From Promethearchaeota archaeon (GTDB taxonomy: Archaea > Asgardarchaeota > Lokiarchaeia > Sigyniarchaeales > SOKP01): DNA of 64,000 nucleotides. The position numbers were made by a program, and so were the translations under genes. Location: contig JBHLNF010000002.1 in the NCBI GenBank assembly GCA_048937405.1, positions 256,001 to 320,000 on the forward strand. The letters run 5' to 3'. Below are positions 12,304 to 25,459 of the stretch, piece by piece. Below the pieces are notes generated by a model, which was given only the letters and a program-made list of their open reading frames with translations, made no database searches and was not told the origin of the DNA. Positions within the stretch are counted from its first letter, which is position 1, and the number at the start of each line of letters is the position of its first letter.

Positions 12304-13491
12304 TTATTCTTCAATTAATTTCCCATTTTCCATTATACTTTTTTTAGAACCATCTATATACTCAACAGTTATGTTTGCTTTAGGAGAAGTAACAAAATCC
12401 CAATGCATTTGAGATGCGGATGTACCTCCAAATCCCTTATTTGAGCCAAAAGCAACATGAACACTTCCATTAATTTTTTCATCAGTAAGAATGTATCCAA
12501 TTGCTTTTGTTATTACAGGATTACATCCTATTCCAAGTTCACCTACGTTATACGTTCTGATCTCTGGTACATTATTTTCTCTATCTACTTTCTCACTCTG
12601 TTTAAAAGCATCTATTAAGAGATCCAGGTTAATATCCGCTGAAACCTTATCGATCAATAGTTTACCATCCTTGAAACTAAGTTCTACATTTTTTAAAATT
12701 TTATGAGTGTAACGTTCAATTGTTAAAGGACAAAATAATGTTCCTTCTCCCTGTTTTTCATGTGGTGGGAAAAAAACTTCTCCGGCAGGCAAGTTTCCTC
12801 CTAAATCTCCTAAGGCAATTTGTTCTTCAGATATTAAACCATCATCAAGAATTTTATCTCGATTTTCTATTGATACCCAAAAGTCAGTACCATAATCATC
12901 ACTAACATATACTTTTTTAGCTTTTTCAAAAAATTTTCCAATATTTTCTGTAATTTTGGTTAAATCTTCTGAAGGAATACACATACCATTAATAATGAAT
13001 TTTTCAAGTAAATCATACTCAATTTTATAGTAATTTGCCATTTTCTCTGAAGGCCAACATGAGTATATCCATCTTTTTCCTGGAGCATATTCTTCTTTAT
13101 ATCCATACAATATATCATTTAATGACGCACGTCCTTCTTGATAAGCTTCAAGCTTATCTTTTGGTGCTCTATTACGAACTAAAGGGTCTTCGGGGTACTC
13201 AATTACAATGTAAGCATCGATTTTTTTAATCATTTCCAAATAAGGGAGTGGCGTACTTTTAATTGTTTTGGCTTTAATTTGGTCATCTTGCCACATTGAA
13301 TTCTCATAATAGTCACTTATCGGGCTAATATGCGGATTTCCTCCTTTTCTAAGAACACTTACCCCTATTTCGTCTAATAAGTCGTAACAATAGAGACCGC
13401 CCTTTATAAGAATGAATTCATTTTCTTTTTTGATGTTTATACCTTTAACAATGTTTTCTGCACATAATTTAATTTTTTCTTTAGGGATCAT
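12304..13491 (-). CDS. Peptidase M29 aminopeptidase (AmpS/PepS-like); probable true start MIPKEKIK at 13491
   Basis: NLPAGEVF, GELGIG, DEKINGSVHVAFG, HWDFV. The start is reassigned because the ATG at 13491 lies in the att-like repeat, and the extra 16 codons of the listed ORF lie inside the element. Confidence 0.9.
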   Translation of the reverse strand: MIPKEKIKLCAENIVKGINIKKENEFILIKGGLYCYDLLDEIGVSVLRKGGNPHISPISDYYENSMWQDDQIKAKTIKSTPLPYLEMIKKIDAYIVIEYPEDPLVRNRAPKDKLEAYQEGRASLNDILYGYKEEYAPGKRWIYSCWPSEKMANYYKIEYDLLEKFIINGMCIPSEDLTKITENIGKFFEKAKKVYVSDDYGTDFWVSIENRDKILDDGLISEEQIALGDLGGNLPAGEVFFPPHEKQGEGTLFCPLTIERYTHKILKNVELSFKDGKLLIDKVSADINLDLLIDAFKQSEKVDRENNVPEIRTYNVGELGIGCNPVITKAIGYILTDEKINGSVHVAFGSNKGFGGTSASQMHWDFVTSPKANITVEYIDGSKKSIMENGKLIEE

Positions 13492-13492
13492 A
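13468..13492. repeat. Left att-like direct repeat (attL)
   Basis: tttaattttttctttAgggatcata is 24/25 identical to 24799-24823 and encodes the aminopeptidase start MIPKEKIK on the minus strand. Confidence 0.85.
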
Positions 13493-13736
13493 TCATTATC
13501 AAATATTTCATGAATATTATTTATTGCTATATTCTGCATTTTGAAATTAGCATATAAGAGAATATAAAAAAATAAGAAATTAAATGAAATTAATTTTGCA
13601 TAAAAATTGAAGTAATATCAATTGATCTTTTTGATTTAAAGGAGAATAAATTTAAATTTAGATCTAAACTTCAAAAATTATTATCTATATTGAAAATATA
13701 ATTGTTCTTAATCAGTTATCAAGAATGTGATATACA

Positions 13737-14399
13737 TCAGGAAAATTTTTTTTGAACTTTTGTTTTTTGAAGTTCCTCTCTTCGGAACCTATCTCCTTCA
13801 AGTACGTCTTGGGGTAATATTAATTTAACTATCCAGTCTACATCAATTTCCTTTTGATTTTTTACTGTATTCTTTATATCATGTCTAATTGGAATCCTGT
13901 CTGGAGCTATAATAAAGGGATAGTCATCGTTTATTTTACCTTGTTCTCGAAGTTTTTTTACAACTTGATTGTTGGATTCCCAAGTAATCTTTGTCTTTAC
14001 ACCTTCTTTATAATTCTTTATTGCTTCTCGAAACTCAGATAAATAATAAAACCTCTCGGCTTTATCTTTTTCATCAAATAACTGGTCCTTTTCATCGTCC
14101 CAATTAGAATTGATTAAGATAAGCTCTTTGAGTGCGTTTGTCATCTTAGCCCCAAATTTCATCAAATATACGCCTAAAACTTGATATGCCAATCGGGATT
14201 TTTGTTTAATTGCAAGTCTAACTAAATCCTCATATGTCTGTTCAATTAATTCTTTGTTCCTTTCATCGGAGATTTCCCTTAAAGTTTCTTTTTCAATGTC
14301 ACTTAAAGCATTATCAACTATATCATTAAATCTGGCAAAAAAAATGTTTGCTTGACTATTCCCCATGATTGTGTAAGACCAAGTTCTCATTTCTGTCAT
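13737..14399 (-). CDS. Candidate immunity protein (DUF4259-like), directly downstream of the giant gene
   Basis: N-terminus MRTWSYTIMGNSQA resembles the MGxWxxxxxxND start of DUF4259; later W-D-D-E...ERxxYL helix; co-oriented 48 bp after the giant gene stop. Confidence 0.45.
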   Translation of the reverse strand: MTEMRTWSYTIMGNSQANIFFARFNDIVDNALSDIEKETLREISDERNKELIEQTYEDLVRLAIKQKSRLAYQVLGVYLMKFGAKMTNALKELILINSNWDDEKDQLFDEKDKAERFYYLSEFREAIKNYKEGVKTKITWESNNQVVKKLREQGKINDDYPFIIAPDRIPIRHDIKNTVKNQKEIDVDWIVKLILPQDVLEGDRFRREELQKTKVQKKFS

Positions 14400-14447
14400 A
14401 TTTAAAAATAAATTTTCTTTCTAATAGCAATATAAAAAATATAGTAT

Positions 14448-17400
14448 TTAAATGTTTGACCTCGACCCTAAAAATTGATCGAACCAATATTCATTAACTC
14501 CCATTTCATTTAAACTTATGATTGCATCATCTTTTTTATCCATTAAAGCATTAAATGCATCTTCATCACCTTTGAGTGATTCTTTCTTGAGTTTCATTAA
14601 TATATTGATTTCTGGAGGAAGTGGATTATCCGGATTAGTCCCTGTCCCAGCTAATCCTAAGAAATTCGACAAATCCTCAATTGTAATAACGTTTATACGA
14701 TCTGGGAAATCGTCAACTAATTTTTTAATATCTCTATCCCATTTAGGAGCTAAATAATGACGTTTTTCATTATATAGCACAATTAATAGATGTGTGTCGT
14801 CAGTATAATAACCTTTTTCTAACTTTTCTTGAATTTTATCGAATCTTGTATTCATTGTCCAATCTATAACAATCCTTTTTATATCTTTGTCAAAATGAGG
14901 AATAGTATAGAAATATTTTTTGTCTTTGTGAAAGTAAAATCTTCCTTGTAAGTCTTGTAAACGATTTTCATCCTCAAAGAAATTTATAAATTCTGTTGTT
15001 CTTGGAATAAGAGTGTCAACTTTAGTGCCTTTATCAAAATCAAGGTTATACCTCTTCGCTCGGATTTCATAAAAGCTTTTAAAATTCCTATCAAGTAAAG
15101 ATCTGATAAATATTTCTGAAATCGGAACATGGAATAAGGTACCAATATCTTCTCTTTTATAATCTCCAATATTTTTTAAGAAATCATTAACCCAGTCTAT
15201 TGCATTTCGCTTTGATTTTGAAGAAACTGATGAAGTTAAACTATTAATTTTCTGTTTAAGATTTATAAATACTGATTTCTTGGGAGTAATCCCTCTCCTT
15301 AAATCTGTCATAAGAGTTGGAGCTATCTTATATATTGATACTATTTCTCTGTTGTTATCATCAGCAAACGCAAACATTGCAGAAATGATAAGATTTAATA
15401 AATCTTGATCAATATCATCTATCAAAACATCCTGCTTCTGCAATTTTACAGTAAAACCATACCTTAAGATATGACCTATCACTAACTTATTGATCGAGGT
15501 AACAAACTCTTTAAAATTATTTTTATCTATATATAAATCTACATCTGTTTCTTTGATTATTATATTTCTTGTCTGCTTGAAATTTAACCTATTAGAATAA
15601 TATATAAATTCAAAAAGAGTTGTAAAATCAAATTCATCTCTTTTTTTGGAATATGTGTGAGATTTTAAAGATCTTAAGACCTTGTCTGGATGTTCAGAAT
15701 GTCCAGAATATAAAATTTTTGATATTAACTCATCAGTCAAAGGTTTTTTAACTCCACATTTTCCAATAAGCTTTTGTAATTCTTCAATAATATTATCTAC
15801 TAATTCTACTCGGTTCGGTTTATCAACTTCTTCTGAATAACGTTTATTATACCAAATATCTAACATTGGATCTGTGAAATGTTCAATTGCACTTACTCTA
15901 ACAAATTCAGGGAGGAACTGGAATGTCTTTCTTTTTAGGATATTAGTAGAAATCTTAATTATAGAATCAATTTCTACAAATTTACGCTTCCCTTTTCTAA
16001 GTTCACCTACCCAACCCGCATTCATTCCAAGCTCTAAACTAAGTCTCTGATATGAAAACTTCTGTTCCCCGTTCCATTTATAGAAAAATTCACTTCCGCC
16101 TATTTTTCTTTTATTAGCTTCTCTAATATTCGCTTGAAGATAATTGATTAAACGAATTGCCAAATTGTTGATACGTTTTATTTGATTTGGATTTAGCCCT
16201 CGAGCTCCAATAACATTACCAGTATTTTCACTTACTGAATAATCATGATCAGGATAGAATTGGAAATTCTTGATACCTAATATTAAATGCGCAAGTGGAT
16301 TATATCTCGTCGCTAACAACAGCTCTACTGTAGAATCAAATAATTCATCTTTTATGAGAGGCTTCTGAGTTTGACCCAACTGGGCCCATTCTATTGCTTC
16401 ACTAAGATCATCTTGTACTATATCGTTTATAGTAACATATTCCAAAAGTGAATCAGAAATTCTATCGGTAAGATAAGTATTTGAAGCTTTAACCTGTTGC
16501 TTTTGTAATACCGACTTATATATATCCTTCAATGAATCTAAAGTCTCTGCGGAAGTTCCAATGCCTATTAGAAGATTTCCGAATCCTGCACTGATGGAGC
16601 CCAAAAGACCCCCAGTAAGAGCTCCAGCAAGCATAATGAAAGGAGAGAAATCATCTATATAATCAATCATTCCCTTTTTAGTTTCTTGCTGTTCTTTAGC
16701 TTTAATCTTTAAGTCATTGGTGGTTTCGATTTGAGATTGAACGCGAATATTAGGCTCGATTTCAGCTTTAATCTGTATTTGAGATTGTTCTTGAAAGTGT
16801 GTATTCATACCGGAACCCGTCCAAATGAGCTGGTTGAGATCACCGGTCATTTCACGTCCCGATTCGGCAAGCCCGCTCCATAAAATCTGAGCAGCAACAC
16901 CATATCCACAGTCGGCAACATAATTAGATACCACTGAGTCAATCCACGGATCCACATACACTTCTTCAATCGATTCGCTTATCATGGCTCCAAAAATACG
17001 GTACATGCCCATGTGTTTACCCCCAAGATCTTCAAACTTACTTCCAATATTTTTGAGAACTTGAGAAGTCATTGTTTTCGAAGATTCCGCAGCCAATGCT
17101 TTGCCTTGAGTAGTGATACTATTACCGAGGCTGCCGAATGCCTTATCAATCCCCATAGTAGCTCCAATGGAGAGCGCGGTGCTAATTACGGTTATAAACA
17201 CTGTGTAGCAAATTTCACTTAAGCGCTGTTGCGTCTGCTCTGCGACCGTAAACTGATAAAGATATTGGAGCATGGATTGATGAGTAGATTGCATGGTAGC
17301 AATTCTCTGAGCTTCTTCTGGAGTGATGTCATCTCTTTCCACAGTGATATCGCGATATTTCTCAATGTGAAAGTCAAGCACAATATATGCATCATATGAG

Positions 17401-20400
17401 GATTGTCCTGGAGATGGATGGTCTTCTTTTGCATCGTTAATAATTGCATTTAACGTTGAATAAATATCTTTACCTGAAATAAGAGATACCTCACCTGTGA
17501 ATGGATTGTATTCTGTATCAATATTTAAACCATCTTTCTGTTCAACTGTTCCTATATTATCAACTAACCATACATCGACTCCTACAATATTGGACATTAA
17601 GGGGCGGTTGGCAAGATATTCATCGGGAATTAACTGAATGGTCTCAGTGGTCTCATCATAAATTTTATAGATATGGTTATATTCATCGTATAGTTCTTGC
17701 TCTTCATATTTTTCATGGGTAACATAAATAGGATAATTCAGGTAAAATTCAGGGACTGCCGTAGTTTCGGAGTCTAACACTTGTAAAGAAGGCTTTACGG
17801 ACATCATATACGGAATAATGCGGTTATAGGACTTTTCCTCGTTTTCGGTGAGGGAGGATATCTGGTCTTCAAGATACATGAGGGAATTTCGCATATATTT
17901 AATATTTTTATTACGGGGTTTTGTGATGGTCATGTCTTTCAAATTGATAGTTCCATCGAGTATTCCTTCACTAGTTACTTCATTTTCCTCCTCGATTGGT
18001 TCGGTAACTACTAAGAATGGTTCCAATCGAGGATCCTCAATATCGGAATATGCTTCATAACTACGAGTCTGTTGGGAATAATCCAATACAATCTTATTAA
18101 ATTTAGTTCCAAAATTGGTGGTTTTATCAATTCCCGGGGAAGCAATAAGAAATTGCCCTTGATAAATATGCTCATCGGTCTCTACCTTAATCTCTGAATA
18201 TACACCTCCTGTCGTTCCAAGTAAGGCGTTGGTCATATGCTCATGGAAGTAACGGTCCTTCCACCATTTATCAGATAAGGTCTCTGTTGTCTTATAATTT
18301 TCATTATACGTCATCTGAGAGACGAGGTAGTTATTTACTTTCTTTTGTTGCTCGATGGCATTTAGGGAATTAATCAGCCAATACGTAAGCATTCCAACAA
18401 CAAATCCGATGGCAGCACCAATATATCCTCCTCCTGCTGTTCCAATAGATGTTCCTTCTAATGCTGCTCCGAGTACTCCCGCAAGAGTAATCCCAACCAC
18501 TTTCCCAATTGTATAAGATGCCACCATGGCACTTACTTGAAATGTGATATCCCCCACTATTTTTTGGGGAGTAAGGGCTTCTATAAATTGATGGGAGGTA
18601 ATACTCATAGCAAGTTTCATTAACTTACTTGACTTTCCAGAATAATCCATCTTCCATACATCGAAAAGCGAATCCCTAAAGGTGGGTTCGACAAATAACC
18701 CGTCAAAATTATTATAATCTTTGTAATTTATTAACCTTCCCTCAGCGATATTTAATGATGTGGCAAAAGAATCGGGAATTTCAGCAGTAGCTGCCTCGCT
18801 TTTTATAATATGCTTTTCCACAGGCATAGATTTATGAGGTTCAAAATATGCGTTTCCATCATAATCAAGCCCAATTCCTACCGTATATCCTTCTGAATCG
18901 GTGATAAAGATGACATTATACAGTCCATCACCATCATCATCATAATACAGATACTTATAATCCTCAATGGTATCCTTGTTATATCCTTCAGTATTATCAT
19001 ATGCAACTCCCATTTCGGGAATTACTTCAATTGCATCCACAGTAATTTGCTGCTCTTCGGTATAATCAGCAATCCCGGAACCTTCATTATATGATCCAGG
19101 AACGGTGATTACTTTTTCGGTGGCTAAAATATTAGAAACCTCAACAGGACTGTTTACAGTGATTTTCCTATCATAAATAGCGGGTACATTATCATCTGGG
19201 TGGGAAAGACTCAAAAGATTTTCAAGTAAGGGCGCTTGTATTTCAATGTCATTGGAAGGATCAGAATCCCCTTGGGTGTCTACGACGGGTATCAGATTAT
19301 TATCTAAGTTATATATTTCAGAAAGCTCGTTTGGAAATACATCATCATAATACCTAGTGCTTACCACTTCACCATATTCAAAATCCCTGAATGTATAGGA
19401 TATGCTGTCATCTGTTATAATATAAGATGAGTTTCGATATTCGGTGAAATTTGCAACTGCATATTTATGATTTACATCATCACTTTTGAAAAATGTGAGA
19501 TAAGTGATTTCGGTGGTACATACTATAGCATAAGTGCTAGTAAATATTTGTTCAGAGGTAAGTTCACTATCTATGTATCCATCTTGATCGATATCTTTTT
19601 GAATTAAAGTGGATAATTTACTAACTCGAGTAGTAGTAGTGGTATTGGTAATTATGGTACGTGTAGCCCACACTCCATTGTTGGCTACTTCATATTGCTC
19701 TGTTTCTCGAATTTCTCCGTTTTTATTTACATTTACTTCAGTAGAGAATACTTCCTGCACTAAGGTATGGAAAGAAATCTCTCCTACGGGATTGATATAT
19801 CCATATTTGAAGGAATCATAGGTGCCATCTCCTGTAATATCATCTTTTTGGACAACATATTCATGGGTACAATCCTCATCATAATCATAGAATTCCAGTA
19901 TAGTTTTTGGATCATCAATTTTTGTAAAGTTGTCGAAATCTTGTCCTTGATCTCCGAACGTAAGGGAATAGGGCTGACTGGGTGGATTATAGAGCACAAA
20001 CCCCTTATTTCGCATATATTCAAAATGCTCAAACATGGACTCTTCTGAGCCCACCGCATACTCTTCCATAAGTAGGAAGTAATCAATATCATTGTATTCA
20101 AAATCAACGTAAAGGCTATCATTTTTTGTCCACGCTGGTGCTTCAGGATGGTTAATAGTAGCAGCATCAGTCATTTTAAATTGGGTATAATCTGAATAAG
20201 CTCCTTCTGAAAAGTTGAGATATACTAAAATTTTCTCAAAATGTTCAAAGGTATATCCATTTGGTGGGGTAATTTCGATCGTTTTTGCTGTGGGGTATAT
20301 AATTACTTGATCTGGATCAAAATCAATGCTGGTTTCGTTGAAAAAATACCCTTTAATGAGCATGATATCGAGGTCTAGGGCGTTCGAGTAATCCTGCGAT

Positions 20401-22655
20401 AAGGTAAAATTCACTTCAGTTGGAACGGTAGCAAACCACGGATAGATAGTCTCTACTGCAATATTTCGAGCTTTGAAGTCTCCAAGAGTTTGATTGTATA
20501 CCACTGATTCATAGTCTTCTGAGCCCTCATCATACCATTCAAAGGTAATATCGAGGGTGTCAATATTGATATTAGGAGATTCAATAGTGTGCCATTCTGA
20601 CCAGGCATTCTCATCTGCCCATGAAATATAGAGATAACTGTAATTTGCAATATGGGGTTGATAATAGTCATATAATTCTTCAAGATTTTCTTTTCCCTCG
20701 ATGTAGGCATTATAATATTCTCCCGAATACATGGGGTTCCAGGTAATATCATAGATTCCAAGTGAAGTATTTTTCCCTATTAAATGAGAATCAAAATAAT
20801 AATAATTCCCATCGCTGTCAAACGCATCAAAATAGAAGGTTTCATTGATGGAGTGATCTCCTGCGTAGAGTGGTAAATAAACGGAAGCATCTAAGGTTCG
20901 CAATTCAGAATAAATATCCTCGTAATTCCCGTAATAAAATGATTGAATGTGATTATTTGGATAAATATCAAATATTTCCGAATCATATAAGGTAGCATTG
21001 TAATCAAATTCAAAAATAAAGAAGGAATCCACGACCACTTGATATCTTGGATCGTTAGATGTAATTAACACATCGGTAATATAGCAATATTCAATGCTGT
21101 TTGAATCGGTGGTTTTAAACTCAGAAGAAATATCTTCAAAAGAAATATTCAATACTTTCTGCTGATAGGTATCATAAAACTCATTTTCGAATGGAGTTAA
21201 ATCTAAAGCCGTTTCCCAAGCTACTAATTTACCTCGCTCTGAATAGATATCATCTATGGTGTAGGTATTACCGTCGTTATGTATTCCGAGAAGTGAAATT
21301 TCCGCAATAGGTACATCATCAATATTGGTAAGGTAATCAGTGATGTAAGGTGCTTTTTGGAGTACCATCTGGTCAATAGTAAGTCCTATTGATTGCTCTA
21401 ACGTGGCATTAAATTTTAAATATAAGATATCACCATCTTTCATATACATAAGATTACCATTTGGATCTATGTACGATTCAGGAAGTGAAATGTTATTATA
21501 CTCCACTTCATAGGTCTGTTGATTATCATAAATGTTAAGTTCTTCGGTTCTGGTATCCACATTGTAAATTGGATAGATTGGTTCATATAACTCATTTAAC
21601 ACAATTACGTATTGATTATGTGAATAACTTTCATTTAACATTCTGATAAGATCTACATTGAGCAATCCGTTTTTCGCTAATTCAGAATCCCACTCAATCG
21701 TCTGTACCGTTGGTATACCTTTTTTGTAAAAATCACCTACAAAATCGGTCGCATTATTAAAGATCGGAGTAAACATAATAGACGCATCATTTGCTACTTT
21801 GAAATTAGACCATTGATTTGGTTGACTTGGTTCTGGAAGGGTGATATAGAGAGTTCCTGAATCATCCTCAAACATATCAAGAGACACCAATGTAGATCCT
21901 ATATAGTTATTCTGTTCGTTATAATAAAAGGAAACATTAAGATATCTGAGCACATCGGGATTTAGAAAGCCCATTTTTAGGATTAATGTATCAAAGGAAT
22001 CCCATCCGTCATAGGGGTCGTTAAGATCTTCGGTAAGATAATAAATGAGGCTGTTGGTGCTATCCTTAGAGCTATTAAGAATGGCAAAAATTTGCTGTAC
22101 CTTACCCCTACTTACAGTAGTATAAGGATCGGTATCATAAATAAAGTGCGACGATTCATAATTTGCCATAAGTGTATCTTCGGGATGTTGAGTAGTAGTC
22201 CAGTTAAGAAGGGTGATCTGATCGGTTGCCAAATTCACAGTAAAGCTATGATAATTCTGATATTTATTATAATAATTGGCATAAATAGTAAGAGTTATCA
22301 TATCATTTTCTCCAAGTTCGCCATCCGAGAGCTCATCTAAATTCGAAATGGTGACTGAATTGTTTGAACTATAATAGTAAATATAAATCTCATCAATAAC
22401 TTCCTGCTGTCCTGTGGAATTCATAAAGGACGCTAATATAATAGGGGTACTATCAGAATATTGTTGGGGTACATTTGGATCCAATTCAATATTGACTTTT
22501 TTATTGGCAATATCTCCATTATTCAAAATTGTTTCAAAGGTTAAAATTGCTTTTTCCTGGAGTCTGTAGTTTAACGCCATCTGATATTGATAGTTTGCTG
22601 ATAGATTGTAGTACAGAGGTGCAATAATTGAACTTCCACTGAACGGATAATAATT
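14448..22655 (-). CDS. Giant acidic protein, 5'-truncated, polymorphic-toxin-like (stalk, hydrophobic helices, HTH, putative PD-(D/E)XK nuclease)
   Basis: >2700 codons. Dx[DN]xDG-type loops (DIDQDG, DDDGDG, DITGDG), Gly-rich hydrophobic helices, basic C-terminus with GTLFH...KVDTLI...IVIDWT. No signal peptide; the first ~22 codons of the listed ORF are the antisense of another gene. Confidence 0.7.
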   Translation of the reverse strand, partial: NYYPFSGSSIIAPLYYNLSANYQYQMALNYRLQEKAILTFETILNNGDIANKKVNIELDPNVPQQYSDSTPIILASFMNSTGQQEVIDEIYIYYYSSNNSVTISNLDELSDGELGENDMITLTIYANYYNKYQNYHSFTVNLATDQITLLNWTTTQHPEDTLMANYESSHFIYDTDPYTTVSRGKVQQIFAILNSSKDSTNSLIYYLTEDLNDPYDGWDSFDTLILKMGFLNPDVLRYLNVSFYYNEQNNYIGSTLVSLDMFEDDSGTLYITLPEPSQPNQWSNFKVANDASIMFTPIFNNATDFVGDFYKKGIPTVQTIEWDSELAKNGLLNVDLIRMLNESYSHNQYVIVLNELYEPIYPIYNVDTRTEELNIYDNQQTYEVEYNNISLPESYIDPNGNLMYMKDGDILYLKFNATLEQSIGLTIDQMVLQKAPYITDYLTNIDDVPIAEISLLGIHNDGNTYTIDDIYSERGKLVAWETALDLTPFENEFYDTYQQKVLNISFEDISSEFKTTDSNSIEYCYITDVLITSNDPRYQVVVDSFFIFEFDYNATLYDSEIFDIYPNNHIQSFYYGNYEDIYSELRTLDASVYLPLYAGDHSINETFYFDAFDSDGNYYYFDSHLIGKNTSLGIYDITWNPMYSGEYYNAYIEGKENLEELYDYYQPHIANYSYLYISWADENAWSEWHTIESPNINIDTLDITFEWYDEGSEDYESVVYNQTLGDFKARNIAVETIYPWFATVPTEVNFTLSQDYSNALDLDIMLIKGYFFNETSIDFDPDQVIIYPTAKTIEITPPNGYTFEHFEKILVYLNFSEGAYSDYTQFKMTDAATINHPEAPAWTKNDSLYVDFEYNDIDYFLLMEEYAVGSEESMFEHFEYMRNKGFVLYNPPSQPYSLTFGDQGQDFDNFTKIDDPKTILEFYDYDEDCTHEYVVQKDDITGDGTYDSFKYGYINPVGEISFHTLVQEVFSTEVNVNKNGEIRETEQYEVANNGVWATRTIITNTTTTTRVSKLSTLIQKDIDQDGYIDSELTSEQIFTSTYAIVCTTEITYLTFFKSDDVNHKYAVANFTEYRNSSYIITDDSISYTFRDFEYGEVVSTRYYDDVFPNELSEIYNLDNNLIPVVDTQGDSDPSNDIEIQAPLLENLLSLSHPDDNVPAIYDRKITVNSPVEVSNILATEKVITVPGSYNEGSGIADYTEEQQITVDAIEVIPEMGVAYDNTEGYNKDTIEDYKYLYYDDDGDGLYNVIFITDSEGYTVGIGLDYDGNAYFEPHKSMPVEKHIIKSEAATAEIPDSFATSLNIAEGRLINYKDYNNFDGLFVEPTFRDSLFDVWKMDYSGKSSKLMKLAMSITSHQFIEALTPQKIVGDITFQVSAMVASYTIGKVVGITLAGVLGAALEGTSIGTAGGGYIGAAIGFVVGMLTYWLINSLNAIEQQKKVNNYLVSQMTYNENYKTTETLSDKWWKDRYFHEHMTNALLGTTGGVYSEIKVETDEHIYQGQFLIASPGIDKTTNFGTKFNKIVLDYSQQTRSYEAYSDIEDPRLEPFLVVTEPIEEENEVTSEGILDGTINLKDMTITKPRNKNIKYMRNSLMYLEDQISSLTENEEKSYNRIIPYMMSVKPSLQVLDSETTAVPEFYLNYPIYVTHEKYEEQELYDEYNHIYKIYDETTETIQLIPDEYLANRPLMSNIVGVDVWLVDNIGTVEQKDGLNIDTEYNPFTGEVSLISGKDIYSTLNAIINDAKEDHPSPGQSSYDAYIVLDFHIEKYRDITVERDDITPEEAQRIATMQSTHQSMLQYLYQFTVAEQTQQRLSEICYTVFITVISTALSIGATMGIDKAFGSLGNSITTQGKALAAESSKTMTSQVLKNIGSKFEDLGGKHMGMYRIFGAMISESIEEVYVDPWIDSVVSNYVADCGYGVAAQILWSGLAESGREMTGDLNQLIWTGSGMNTHFQEQSQIQIKAEIEPNIRVQSQIETTNDLKIKAKEQQETKKGMIDYIDDFSPFIMLAGALTGGLLGSISAGFGNLLIGIGTSAETLDSLKDIYKSVLQKQQVKASNTYLTDRISDSLLEYVTINDIVQDDLSEAIEWAQLGQTQKPLIKDELFDSTVELLLATRYNPLAHLILGIKNFQFYPDHDYSVSENTGNVIGARGLNPNQIKRINNLAIRLINYLQANIREANKRKIGGSEFFYKWNGEQKFSYQRLSLELGMNAGWVGELRKGKRKFVEIDSIIKISTNILKRKTFQFLPEFVRVSAIEHFTDPMLDIWYNKRYSEEVDKPNRVELVDNIIEELQKLIGKCGVKKPLTDELISKILYSGHSEHPDKVLRSLKSHTYSKKRDEFDFTTLFEFIYYSNRLNFKQTRNIIIKETDVDLYIDKNNFKEFVTSINKLVIGHILRYGFTVKLQKQDVLIDDIDQDLLNLIISAMFAFADDNNREIVSIYKIAPTLMTDLRRGITPKKSVFINLKQKINSLTSSVSSKSKRNAIDWVNDFLKNIGDYKREDIGTLFHVPISEIFIRSLLDRNFKSFYEIRAKRYNLDFDKGTKVDTLIPRTTEFINFFEDENRLQDLQGRFYFHKDKKYFYTIPHFDKDIKRIVIDWTMNTRFDKIQEKLEKGYYTDDTHLLIVLYNEKRHYLAPKWDRDIKKLVDDFPDRINVITIEDLSNFLGLAGTGTNPDNPLPPEINILMKLKKESLKGDEDAFNALMDKKDDAIISLNEMGVNEYWFDQFLGSRSNI

Positions 22656-22867
22656 ATTGTAAAATTTATAATAAAGATGATAGATTATTGGGAATTTATT
22701 TTTATGACACCTTAGAACAGGCAAAAAAAGAGTTCTTACATTATGATAGTTTTATTACAGGATATTGTATTATAACCGATAGAACCACTAAGACTCAGTT
22801 AAAGATAACTGATAATGGGAAAGAGTCAGTCATTATCTTAGGAAAACAACTTTCCATCAATTCTTAA
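22643..22867 (+). pseudogene. 5'-truncated small ORF (..YCKIYNKDDRLLGIYFYDTLEQAKKEFLHYDSFITGYCIITDRTTKTQLKITDNGKESVIILGKQLSINS*)
   Basis: Open + frame from 22643 to TAA 22865-22867, protein-like, no ATG, first of a run of small + ORFs. Confidence 0.55.
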
Positions 22868-22897
22868 CATTTTTTTCTTTAAATAAATCAAAAAGAA

Positions 22898-23128
22898 GTG
22901 ATAGTAATGAGTCGAGCTTTAAATTTTGAATTGGTAAAGGAGGGTATTTTGAAAGCTATTGAACTAAATGATTTTGAACAGTTACACCATTTCAAATCGA
23001 TGTTAAGTGAACTTATTGCACAAGTTCAGTTTCTAATCGAGAGTAATCCATTGATCAATAAAAACAATGTTGATATATTGGAGAAAGCTCAGAAATTATA
23101 TTTGTTAGCAGTAAATATCTCAAATTAG
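22898..23128 (+). CDS. Small helical hypothetical protein (element-borne)
   Basis: ORF with SD-like GAAGTGA ahead of the ATG at 22907. Confidence 0.65.
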   Translation: MIVMSRALNFELVKEGILKAIELNDFEQLHHFKSMLSELIAQVQFLIESNPLINKNNVDILEKAQKLYLLAVNISN

Positions 23129-23232
23129 TAGAAAGGAATGACTGAAAAAATGAATCACTACTTATTAAGAATCACTTTTCTTTCTTACTAATATTTTTCT
23201 TCATTTTAAAATAATTTTAAGAAATTTGCGAG

Positions 23233-23619
23233 AAGAATGAGGGATTGCTTTGGAAATATTTGTAATTATATGAGATAAATTGAAAGCCTTCCTATTTTGC
23301 TGAAAAAGTTACTAATTTATCATTACTTTGAGAAAATTTAAATATGGTATAGGATGAGAAAATAATATTTCACATTCTTGCATATAACTTACTTCTCCTC
23401 AAATTTGAAATATAATTCAGAAAAATAGCATATATTTTCAAGTACTTCTTAATATCTCTCTTAAAATCTATCATTTCTGTATATTTCTTGAAGATGACAT
23501 ATTTGAGGTATTTCACCTATATAATTGTTCTTTCTTAATGTTTCGTTGGTTTTCTCATTTAATTTTGTTGGGATACAGTTTTTCCAATCTCCTTCCCTAC
23601 GATGCAATCCCTCATTCTT
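23233..23619. repeat. Perfect 16-bp inverted repeat pair, 355 bp apart
   Basis: aagaatgagggattgc (23233-23248) and gcaatccctcattctt (23604-23619); extends outward imperfectly (tgcg/cgca). Confidence 0.85.
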
Positions 23620-23915
23620 ACGCAGATCTTTCTTTCTTACTCCGTATTCTTCCCTAAGATATGTTCAAATAGACTTCAAAAGGTCGCGTACATGCTGAAA
23701 AGGTACTAATATTCTTCAGCGATTCCAAGATTATATATTTTTTAGATTATGTAAAAATGGCTTCAAAAAGCTTAGGTTTTGCGAATCTTTGAAGATAAAA
23801 TTTGGTAATGGCATGGAAGATTAACAGAAATTCCATAAATCATCAATCTCTCATTATTGATAAATGATTCAGTCTATTCTATTCATATAAGAAAACATAT
23901 AAAATGGTAGCTTAA

Positions 23916-24161
23916 ATGATTGATACCCAAAAATACATGGATTTGATAAAAGAAAGCGAAATGGCAAAAGATTTAGAGAAACTCAATGACCTCTTAGACA
24001 CGGTGTCCAGCCTCTTAGTCGAATTACAATCTCATAGAGGGAACTCCTATAGTGAAGTACAGCAACTCGAAACCCTAATCTGCTGTATATTTCACAGCTA
24101 CGGGAAGGTTTCGCGAAATCGTGAGTTTAAGCTATCCAAAACACCAAAATTAAAAAAATAA
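23916..24161 (+). CDS. Small hypothetical protein (element-borne)
   Basis: 81-aa helical ORF in the co-oriented small-gene run. Confidence 0.65.
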   Translation: MIDTQKYMDLIKESEMAKDLEKLNDLLDTVSSLLVELQSHRGNSYSEVQQLETLICCIFHSYGKVSRNREFKLSKTPKLKK

Positions 24162-24185
24162 CAAAAAAGGATGTGAAAATAAAAA

Positions 24186-24374
24186 ATGTGCTATTATGTG
24201 GTAGATTTTTGTAAAAAGACAATTACCAAGTGTGAAACGCAAGGACAAGCGAAAGCCTTGTGTATTTTAGCCTTGACCAAGTCTCCCTCTCTTAATATTT
24301 TTTCGTATAACGAGATTGATTTTAACAAGTTGGAGTTAAATAAAACCGAATTTGAAGAATTAACAGTTTTTTAG
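24186..24374 (+). CDS. Small hypothetical protein (element-borne)
   Basis: 62-aa ORF with an SD-like GGATGTGA upstream. Confidence 0.6.
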   Translation: MCYYVVDFCKKTITKCETQGQAKALCILALTKSPSLNIFSYNEIDFNKLELNKTEFEELTVF

Positions 24375-24392
24375 AATTCAAGAGGAGATGAT

Positions 24393-24791
24393 ATGAAAAT
24401 GATTTATCAAGATATTTATAGGCTGTTAAGTGAGATTGTGGATTTATCTACATTGCGAGATCAGGGATATTTAAAATACAAATCAAGCGGATTTATGGAT
24501 CTAAACGTGGACTTTCTCATGGAAGATGAGCAAAAGCGGGAAATTATCGCCCTTTCTCATTATTATAAGCAAAATGGTGATATGATTGCCGATCCTGATA
24601 TGGAACTAAGGATTGATTATGCATGGGATAATCCTACTTGTGAGGCATTGTCTTATCAAGACTATTTTGGTTATAAAAAAGTGTATAATGAGATTGGGAA
24701 TTTTGATCCCAAGATAAAAGCTGATTTAAATGAGTTTTTATTGATATGGTTAAAGAATCTCAAGAATCAACAATTCAAACTATTTATTTAA
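24393..24791 (+). CDS. DUF1249/DUF6908-like protein typical of mobile elements
   Basis: GFMDLNV...ALSHYYKQNGDMIADPDMEL...LNEFLLIWLKNLKNQ; SD GAGGAG. Confidence 0.8.
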   Translation: MKMIYQDIYRLLSEIVDLSTLRDQGYLKYKSSGFMDLNVDFLMEDEQKREIIALSHYYKQNGDMIADPDMELRIDYAWDNPTCEALSYQDYFGYKKVYNEIGNFDPKIKADLNEFLLIWLKNLKNQQFKLFI

Positions 24792-24798
24792 TAATTTT

Positions 24799-24823
24799 TT
24801 TAATTTTTTCTTTGGGGATCATA
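24799..24823. repeat. Right att-like direct repeat (attR); displaced original aminopeptidase 5' end
   Basis: tttaattttttctttGgggatcata; the minus strand reads ATG ATC CCC AAA GAA AAA ATT AAA (MIPKEKIK). Confidence 0.85.
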
Positions 24824-24997
24824 CATTAATTCAATATTTTATTAATAATATTAGTTATTAGATTTATTAAAAAAAATCAATATGCAAGAGTACAAAAGCA
24901 TTTATTATTAAAAGTTCGTATATTAAAAATATTAAACTAATTGTATTATTAAACTATTATTCTAAATATCTCAAAATCGTACACAAAGCTCTCACTT

Positions 24998-25459
24998 ATG
25001 GTTGTTCGAGAAGCAGGACTGTTATTTAGGGGCTATACATTAGTAAAAAAAAGTTATCACAAATCTACAAAAGGAAAAATTGATACTGACTTAAGAAGTG
25101 GATTGCTTACTGCAATCTTAAATTTTGCTCAATCTACTTTTTCAAAAGACTTTGTTGAATATTTTGAAGGTAAAAAATATCTTATTGCATTTACAGAGGA
25201 CGCAATTAATGCTGAAGATAGTTTTGAACCAGAACTTTTAATTTCTTATGTTATTTTAGATAAAGAGAAAAAAATTGAAAAATATATTAGGAAAATTATT
25301 CAACCATTACTTAAACAAATAACTAAAGAATTTAAAACACAAAATGTTGGAAAAAATTTATCAGAAGTTTCTCAATTTAAAGATTTTAAACTATATTTAG
25401 ATAAAATTTTTGGTTCTGATACAAAAACAATTGATCAAAAATTTAAGAATTTATTTTAA
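24998..25459 (+). CDS. Longin-like domain protein
   Basis: DTDLRSGLLTAILNFAQ helix motif typical of Asgard longin-like domains; paralogue of 45988-46449. Confidence 0.6.
   Translation: MVVREAGLLFRGYTLVKKSYHKSTKGKIDTDLRSGLLTAILNFAQSTFSKDFVEYFEGKKYLIAFTEDAINAEDSFEPELLISYVILDKEKKIEKYIRKIIQPLLKQITKEFKTQNVGKNLSEVSQFKDFKLYLDKIFGSDTKTIDQKFKNLF

Follow-up and report, generated by a model that had tools for sequence, protein, structure and literature searches.

An 11.3-kb island at the 5' end of an aminopeptidase gene of a Promethearchaeota archaeon lies between two orthologue-like copies of the gene's start region

How can more than 11 kb of DNA come to lie directly in front of a gene and leave its reading frame intact? 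The locus that raises this question belongs to a Loki-type Asgard archaeon (Promethearchaeota archaeon, assembly GCA_048937405.1) and was analysed within a stretch of 64,000 nt (contig JBHLNF010000002.1, positions 256,001 to 320,000), in the following called the window, to whose first letter positions refer unless a contig is named. The gene is ampS (12304..13491, minus strand), which codes for an M29-family aminopeptidase of 395 amino acids (Pfam PF02073 at 3e-20), and the DNA in front of it, here called the ampS island, separates it from a conserved gene for a protein of 153 amino acids (24998..25459, plus strand). The genome, coded G000, is a metagenome-type assembly of 4.47 Mb in 29 contigs with 5.7% contamination; relatives are likewise coded by G-numbers. 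The island is an insertion with exact borders, in which our searches found no mobility genes, and on either side of it lies a copy of the ampS start region that looks like an orthologue. With slightly better than even confidence we regard it as a fairly recent insertion of 11.3 kb by recombination at the 5' end of ampS, most likely by a single crossover (Campbell-type) with incoming circular DNA.

A first-pass annotation of the window had reported a 25-bp direct repeat around this interval, and sequence comparison confirms it: positions 13468–13492 and 24799–24823 are equal in 24 of 25 bases. On the minus strand both copies read ATG ATC CC(T/C) AAA GAA AAA ATT AAA and encode MIPKEKIK, as the annotation had also stated. 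The sole mismatch (A at 13483, G at 24814) turns CCT into CCC and is synonymous for the proline codon. A small correction concerns the start codons, which are located at 13491–13489 in the left copy and 24822–24820 in the right copy. The repeat could have been a common sequence in this genome, a possibility that the annotation had itself raised against its reading; a pattern search allowing up to 3 mismatches found exactly two copies of the 25-mer in the 4.47 Mb. Three order-3 Markov genomes of the same size contained 0, 1 and 2 direct pairs with 24/25 equal bases at distances of 1–50 kb, and chance is excluded as an explanation of the repeat.

The similarity is not confined to these 25 bases. 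Ungapped, it spans 66 nt with 77% identity, comprising 24 coding bases (ampS codons 1–8) and about 41 nt upstream of the gene. The looser similarity past the core that the annotation had pointed out is thus real: 27 of the 41 nt are equal, against a mean of 14.4 for AT-rich 41-mers from the same genome (P(≥27) = 4.5e-5). To the left of the core the flanks show no similarity (14/36). The longest exact runs shared inside the repeat measure 15 nt and 9 nt. The left copy, resembling an attL (a left attachment site), extends over 13468..13533 and holds codons 1–8 of the working gene with the 41 nt in front of them. The right, attR-like copy (24799..24864) holds a stranded ampS promoter region and a decoy of 8 codons, whose frame continues to an open reading frame (ORF) of 12 codons (24822–24784, minus strand) before it meets a stop.

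In order to establish what the locus looks like without the island, orthologues of ampS and of the 153-amino-acid gene were located across 53 other species genomes of the genus. In 45 of them a single contig carries both genes, oriented head to head and 121–336 bp apart. In G003 the distance is 836 bp, and in G060 the genes sit on two contig ends that overlap by about 77 bp, so that this site is taken to be empty as well. The annotation had predicted that relatives would show ampS next to the 24998 gene, and this divergent, empty arrangement is indeed present in 46–47 of the 53 species. Among the others, ampS of G049 begins beside the neighbour gene but is cut after 95 codons by an insert resembling an insertion sequence (IS), and in G002 ampS is absent from the locus, where an upstream CinA-like gene directly precedes the 153-amino-acid neighbour; in the remaining genomes ampS is missing or the locus is broken by a contig end. 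Since ampS is interrupted in G049 and absent in G002, it is dispensable in the genus. Only in G000 do 11.3 kb separate ampS and its neighbour.

The inserted DNA can be delimited as 13493..24798, 11,306 bp in length (11,331 bp with one repeat copy). It is present once in the genome and absent from the ampS site in all 53 congeneric genomes. When 13492 is joined to 24824, the restored site is colinear with the one in G053, the closest relative, and the 25-base core there equals the left copy. The native stretch begins at 24824; the part of it beyond the repeat (24865..24997) is the rest of the original intergenic DNA, of which the roughly 115 bp nearest the neighbour gene are almost identical to G053. 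From the right-hand ATG to the neighbour's ATG the distance is 175 bp, within the 121–336 bp of the relatives' gaps. The earlier expectation that deleting the interval would bring back the aminopeptidase, a short divergent intergenic region and the neighbour gene therefore holds. So does the statement that a protein gene was hit at its 5' end, and not a tRNA gene: the insertion is lineage-specific and bounded by the repeat, a tRNA scan of 8000–30000 found none, and an Rfam scan returned nothing.

Next, we asked which copy of the repeat is native. Both 41-nt arms (that of the left copy counted from 13492, its last core base) equal the native upstream region of relatives at 27–30 of 41 positions (P ~5e-5 each). 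Past −41 the left arm loses this similarity, and only the right arm stays similar to the relatives, continuing into the intergenic DNA that is almost identical to G053. The right copy is therefore considered native and the left arm island-borne. When the two parental sites were reconstructed on this basis, attB for the host and attP for the incoming DNA, each matched the native sites of G014 and G023 at 51/66, attP also that of G016, and attP and attB matched each other at 51/66. In its divergence from the host copy, the imported 66-bp version would thus equal the copies found in other species of the genus. By this comparison the two copies look like one region taken from two species of the genus, its coding bases strongly and its upstream bases weakly conserved.

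The distribution of differences bears on timing as well. The two copies differ at 1 of 25 positions in the core and at 14 of 41 in the arm. Because the functionless right copy keeps its core while the arms differ this much, the arms were already different on arrival and the event is recent. Uniform decay of a duplication that was identical at the outset does not fit this pattern, which matches interspecies conservation.

For the aminopeptidase itself the insertion has had limited consequences. A base-by-base comparison with 18 relatives places the start M-I-[TP]-K-E-K at the codon equivalent to 13491. Over its whole length ampS is closest to G053 (protein 83% identical), and its first 120 nt, with 90% nucleotide identity, are the most G053-like part of the gene; a mosaic test of ampS revealed no foreign patch at the 5' end. 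Because the coding sequence is host DNA and most G053-like at this end, the incoming DNA appears to have replaced the promoter-proximal region and not the N-terminus. The annotation's phrase that the element rebuilds the 5' end of the gene needs to be narrowed accordingly: the coding 5' end is of host type, with a 25-base core identical to G053, and it is the ~41 nt upstream that the incoming DNA supplied. Its further point that ampS is now preceded by imported DNA is borne out.

These imported bases (13493..13533, minus strand) are a look-alike of the promoter-proximal region of ampS, with a TATA-like sequence AAATAATATT at about −31 to −22 from the ATG. In gene orientation an A/T-rich TATA-like box is located at this distance in all versions of the region. 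The position would suit a leaderless archaeal transcript, and we infer that the imported 41 nt work as a promoter. In the native arm (24832–24851) and in relatives (e.g. L021, L015) we noticed two AATATT palindromes, which occupy −11 to −16 and −25 to −30 relative to the ampS ATG with a spacing of 14 nt; the imported arm (13502–13518) has them at a spacing of 11 nt. Such a pair may constitute a regulator site overlapping the TATA-like box. An in-frame ATG at 13539, inside the imported DNA, would add 16 residues (MQNIAINNIHEIFDND) to the aminopeptidase and is conserved in no relative.

How might such a structure have arisen? Campbell-type insertion-duplication and homology-facilitated illegitimate recombination have been described for naturally transformable bacteria. 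As in those cases, foreign DNA lies here between two copies of a short host segment, one imported and one native, and no recombinase of the element is needed. Here, the shared segment measures only 66 bp (15 and 9 nt exact), lies at the promoter and start codon of a gene and belongs to an Asgard archaeon, in whose group the process is putative. In the scheme that we favour, the incoming circular DNA would have carried its own 66-bp ampS start region, consisting of 8 codons and ~41 upstream bases, and exchange would have taken place in or beside the 25 conserved bases. Provided that the parents already differed at the A/G mismatch, the exchange can be placed within GGGATCATA (13484..13492), which comprises the start codon and the next two codons and thus spans the ATG; probably it happened there. 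The G053 native site carries A as the left copy does, and the right copy carries G. The host ampS frame would have remained intact behind the imported promoter look-alike, and the native promoter region with its 8-codon decoy would have been stranded 11.3 kb away, facing into the island. Catalysis would not have been provided by the island itself: it may have come from host homologous recombination or from an unknown recombinase acting in trans.

Several observations weigh against this scheme. A circular form, an attP junction or a donor arrangement turned up neither in IMG/VR nor in the JGI metagenomes or the 53 genomes, and the exact matches in metagenomes are unrelated. Exact shared stretches of 15 and 9 nt are little for homologous recombination. 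Compared with G053 both arms score 24/41, neutral divergence being saturated, so similarity of this kind cannot assign the arms to host or donor. The lone mismatch could also have arisen by mutation after the event, in which case the crossover point is undefined. Finally, import of linear DNA with one illegitimate junction leads to the same final structure. Host recombination on a circular intermediate, an unknown trans-acting recombinase and linear import with one illegitimate junction may each fit the locus.

The ampS island is not the only arrangement of this type in the genome. Between hisS and pyrF we found a 154-bp direct repeat (81% identity) that duplicates the 3' end of hisS and flanks an island of 10.5 kb (repeat copies at G000:C28:481692–481845 and 492238–492391, i.e. 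L106:2692–2845 and 13238–13391). Its cargo comprises a PASTA-domain protein, glycosyltransferases, a GH130 enzyme and unknown genes; it holds no integrase and has no gene in common with the ampS island. The hisS–pyrF gap measures 66–70 bp in G013 and G002, and inserts of other sizes occupy it in other relatives. The stranded copy of the hisS end keeps the G053-type sequence and C-terminal ending, and the working copy has a different, imported-looking end; judged from these sequences, incoming DNA would again have supplied a replacement gene end. A crude scan with only crude filtering yielded 17 candidates for gene-end duplications genome-wide. At ampS, the insert thus lies between a native and an imported version of the same host segment, and the pattern recurs at unrelated loci without shared genes, as in insertion-duplication.

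Because of this recurrence our reading shifted from a self-mobile element to general insertion-duplication, and because the similar cases lack integrases the general route is likelier than an element that moves itself. Very tentatively, the pattern might extend to Loki-type Asgard archaea in general: insertion at gene ends, independent of an integrase or mediated by an unknown recombinase in trans, would be frequent in them, with the DNA bringing a replacement end, at ampS a core promoter and start codon. Two other repeat pairs turned up in the same genome. The pair at C7:336847/371688 was provisionally set aside, as it encloses RadA- and RPA-like genes. A 38/39 direct repeat (G000:C7:72815–72853 and 94151–94189) has its copies 21.3 kb apart, with flanks of ~30 nt that are mutual reverse complements (X-core-Y ... 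Y'-core-X'); either inverted repeats whose centre has flipped or a segment able to invert could explain this.

Among the alternatives, the one that survives best, although we judge it unlikely, is that linear DNA of a related strain or species was imported through homology-facilitated illegitimate recombination. A fragment of the donor chromosome would have been anchored in ampS at one end, through homology, and joined illegitimately at codon 8 with the other; the whole left copy would be donor DNA, and the whole native 5' region a remnant. That both repeat copies look like orthologues from different species agrees with this, as does the number of integrase-less gene-end duplications in one genome (the 17 crude candidates). 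The hisS case points the same way: there the resemblance of the stranded copy to G053 extends as far as the gene-internal edge of the repeat, where the working copy differs, which places any crossover at or beyond that edge. Linear import needs, however, a donor with the island 41 nt upstream of its ampS, and none of the 53 species (0/53) has this arrangement. Moreover, the first 120 nt of the G000 gene are the most G053-like (90%), with no foreign patch, and a right junction 7 nt past a stop codon is tidy for a random break.

Rather improbable, in our judgement, is a self-mobile integrative element (a provirus, plasmid or cryptic integrated element) whose own site-specific integrase acted on an attB at the beginning of ampS and which switches ampS by excising again. 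The attL/attR-like repeats have their near-perfect core at the gene-internal edge, and the 'restoring' arm is located on one side only, as in elements that restore the ends of tRNA or other genes. The G+C content of the island exceeds that of the genome, ampS is co-directional with the operon of the island's giant gene (see below), pieces of an ORF62–DUF6908 module are scattered in G053, G045 and G044 as decayed mobile DNA would be, and the DUF6908 family also occurs on phage contigs. Against this stands the absence of any machinery. Pfam, PHROGs, NCBIfam and PADLOC were searched with all ORFs, and stop-to-stop frames of the ORF-poor stretch as well as read-through searches with hidden Markov models (HMMs) were included. 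No tyrosine (PF00589) or SSV-type (PF16795) integrase, resolvase, transposase, Cas1/casposase or excisionase was detected in the island, nor any gene for replication, capsid, conjugation or partition; the sole match was DUF6908 (phrog_9098, unknown function). An integrase split by the insertion is excluded since no ORF runs into either end of the island. As a candidate for a beheaded recombinase we considered a startless ORF of 74 amino acids (22643–22867), which in a HMMER scan matched itself and two repeat proteins only. The whole genome has just two integrase hits for PF00589/PF16795, at C9:13802 and C28:148250. The latter was rejected as a helper: no att-like repeat lies nearby, and no further copy of the ampS core exists.

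A search for other elements using the same att, as had been suggested, found none among the 53 species of the genus. A 22-mer of the att is absent from IMG/VR; in the JGI metagenomes it has three matches, all with unrelated flanks, and thus no attB/attP junction came to light. In other Asgard genomes, DUF6908 homologues lie among ordinary genes with no tyrosine integrase on their contigs. With ampS absent in G002 and interrupted in G049, a switch would be of little obvious value. Of the site-specific integration into the gene start that the annotation had put forward, what stands is the insertion at exactly this place; the self-encoded system is not supported, as neither integrase, transposase nor casposase was found in any ORF or by read-through search. 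Its idea of excision as an expression switch finds no support either, given the lack of a recombinase and of junctions in public collections and the fact that ampS is missing or broken in some relatives.

Prophages acting as regulatory switches are familiar from bacteria, such as the island at the 5' end of mutL in Streptococcus pyogenes and the comK prophage of Listeria, which have an integrase and an excisionase and excise reversibly. The ampS island resembles them in position, since a protein gene has the insert at its 5' end or close by and its expression would come under the influence of the insert. Unlike them it has no excision machinery, and its imported DNA appears to preserve a promoter, not to remove one. 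A protein-gene 5' end is an unusual integration site for archaea, in which insertions have been reported from tRNA genes, intergenic DNA and gene 3' ends. Of 68 thaumarchaeal elements, 39 are located in tRNA genes, 15 in intergenic DNA and 14 in the 3'-distal part of protein genes, and crenarchaeal att sites of 29–69 bp are cited in the same survey (Krupovic et al. 2019, PMC6563490). With such gene-end elements the ampS locus shares flanking direct repeats, an empty site in relatives, an asymmetric restoring arm and a repeat length within the archaeal att range. It departs from them in lacking an integrase, in its 5' target, where the protein-gene targets of the survey are 3'-distal only, and in the replacement of a promoter region (PMC6563490). 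Integrated elements of Atabeyarchaeia have tyrosine integrases, an 11-bp att and excised circles in the reads (Valentin-Alvarado et al. 2024, PMC11529989). These too are islands of ~8–11 kb in Asgard chromosomes that are bounded by a short repeated motif, but integrase, 11-bp att and excised circles have been seen there and not at the ampS island (PMC11529989).

Transposition or a casposon-type insertion, with the repeat as a decayed target-site duplication, would account for direct repeats around the insert and is nevertheless highly improbable, as 25–66 bp are too long for known target-site duplications, terminal inverted repeats are lacking (the best end-to-end inverted match covers 25 nt at 76%) as are transposase and Cas1, and divergence is uneven (1/25 versus 14/41) though the stranded copy is under no selection. 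Just as improbable is that no insertion took place at all: an ancestral island would require about 47 species each to have lost it and left a clean site, and an assembly artefact fusing an episome to the chromosome via shared bases, for which the metagenome-type assembly with 29 contigs and 5.7% contamination could speak, is countered by a longest exact run of 15 nt, shorter than usual assembly k-mers, by distinct junctions and by the host-type allele on the host side.

The insertion by recombination at the ampS 5' end, probably Campbell-type, is thus an example, resolved to the base pair, of an Asgard archaeon that acquired 11 kb of accessory genes and kept the gene at the target site, the incoming DNA having apparently carried a stand-in for that gene's promoter. 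Taken alone, the ampS island is one more instance and no new mechanism. Together with the hisS case it points to recurrent acquisition of islands without an integrase, which could be studied in cultured relatives.

What did the incoming DNA bring along? With 33% G+C the island lies above the genome (29%), reaching up to 40% inside its giant gene. This gene (14448..22724, minus strand) encodes 2758 amino acids with predicted membrane helices, and downstream of it follows an ORF of 220 amino acids (13737..14399, minus strand) with no family match. G003 and G005 have homologues at other loci with which the giant protein has residues 14 to ~2100 in common; its final ~630 amino acids are not shared and give an XRE-type helix-turn-helix lead, Atlas leads there being weak. 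The sequences would fit a giant gene with a conserved body and a variable tip. An AlphaFold model of the last 330 amino acids reached a pLDDT (predicted local distance difference test) of 38 and is unusable. In the giant-gene cargo no toxin or immunity family was matched in Pfam, PHROGs, NCBIfam or PADLOC. G003 has a long form of the protein (C8, L056 8331–18464) with at least 614 extra N-terminal residues, and G005 a short form (C125, L090 4321–7425) that has the same start point as the window's gene and lies beside an Mrr-like gene. Distant relatives are ORFs of 12,000–20,000 amino acids.

On the plus strand the ORF list shows three small ORFs (22898–23128, 23916–24161 and 24186–24374) and an ORF-poor stretch of 790 bp within 22898..24374. 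The ORF-poor part holds a perfect 16-bp inverted repeat (23233–23248 and 23604–23619), which is unique in the genome and was for this reason rejected as a miniature inverted-repeat transposable element (MITE). Last comes a DUF6908/YqiB-like gene (24393..24791, plus strand; PF21849 at 4e-25), ending 7 nt before the right repeat copy. A 62-amino-acid ORF of the island (ORF62) has homologues at unrelated loci in G053 and G045; the islet around the G045 homologue has no flanking repeat. Pieces of the ORF62–DUF6908 module occur at unrelated loci in G053, G045 and G044, as DUF6908 fragments in G044 and G053, and their neighbours are ordinary genes. This scatter hints at mobile DNA. The DUF6908 remnant in G044 shows no shared att after the stop codon.

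DUF6908 is found in 13 of 399 Asgard genomes, where it is patchy and sometimes present in multiple copies at contig ends, and the phage contigs mentioned above are two phage-like ones. As a marker of mobile elements it was rejected, the homologues in 12 other Asgard genomes standing among ordinary genes. In two genomes of another genus of the family, G214 and G217 (L081–L084, L089), DUF6908 lies in repeated segments of ~1 kb near contig ends with up to 5 copies per genome, which suggests a multi-copy element.

The neighbour of ampS, called a longin gene in the first-pass annotation, has an orthologue in 52 of the 53 genomes. It has no sequence match in Pfam, NCBIfam or PDB, and an Atlas lead at 0.88 describes it as roadblock/longin-like, a weak lead to its identity. 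The intergenic space between ampS and this gene is variable in the genus. In the wider gap of G003 (C4, L057 2872–3273) we noticed an ORF for a cysteine-rich, small zinc-finger protein of 133 amino acids, and similar DNA is present in G009. The insert in the G049 gene (C23 end L067, C1 end L068) lies at about codon 95 and has the ends GG(T/G)TAATTTTATAAA(C/T)GAAT, which are IS- or MITE-like.

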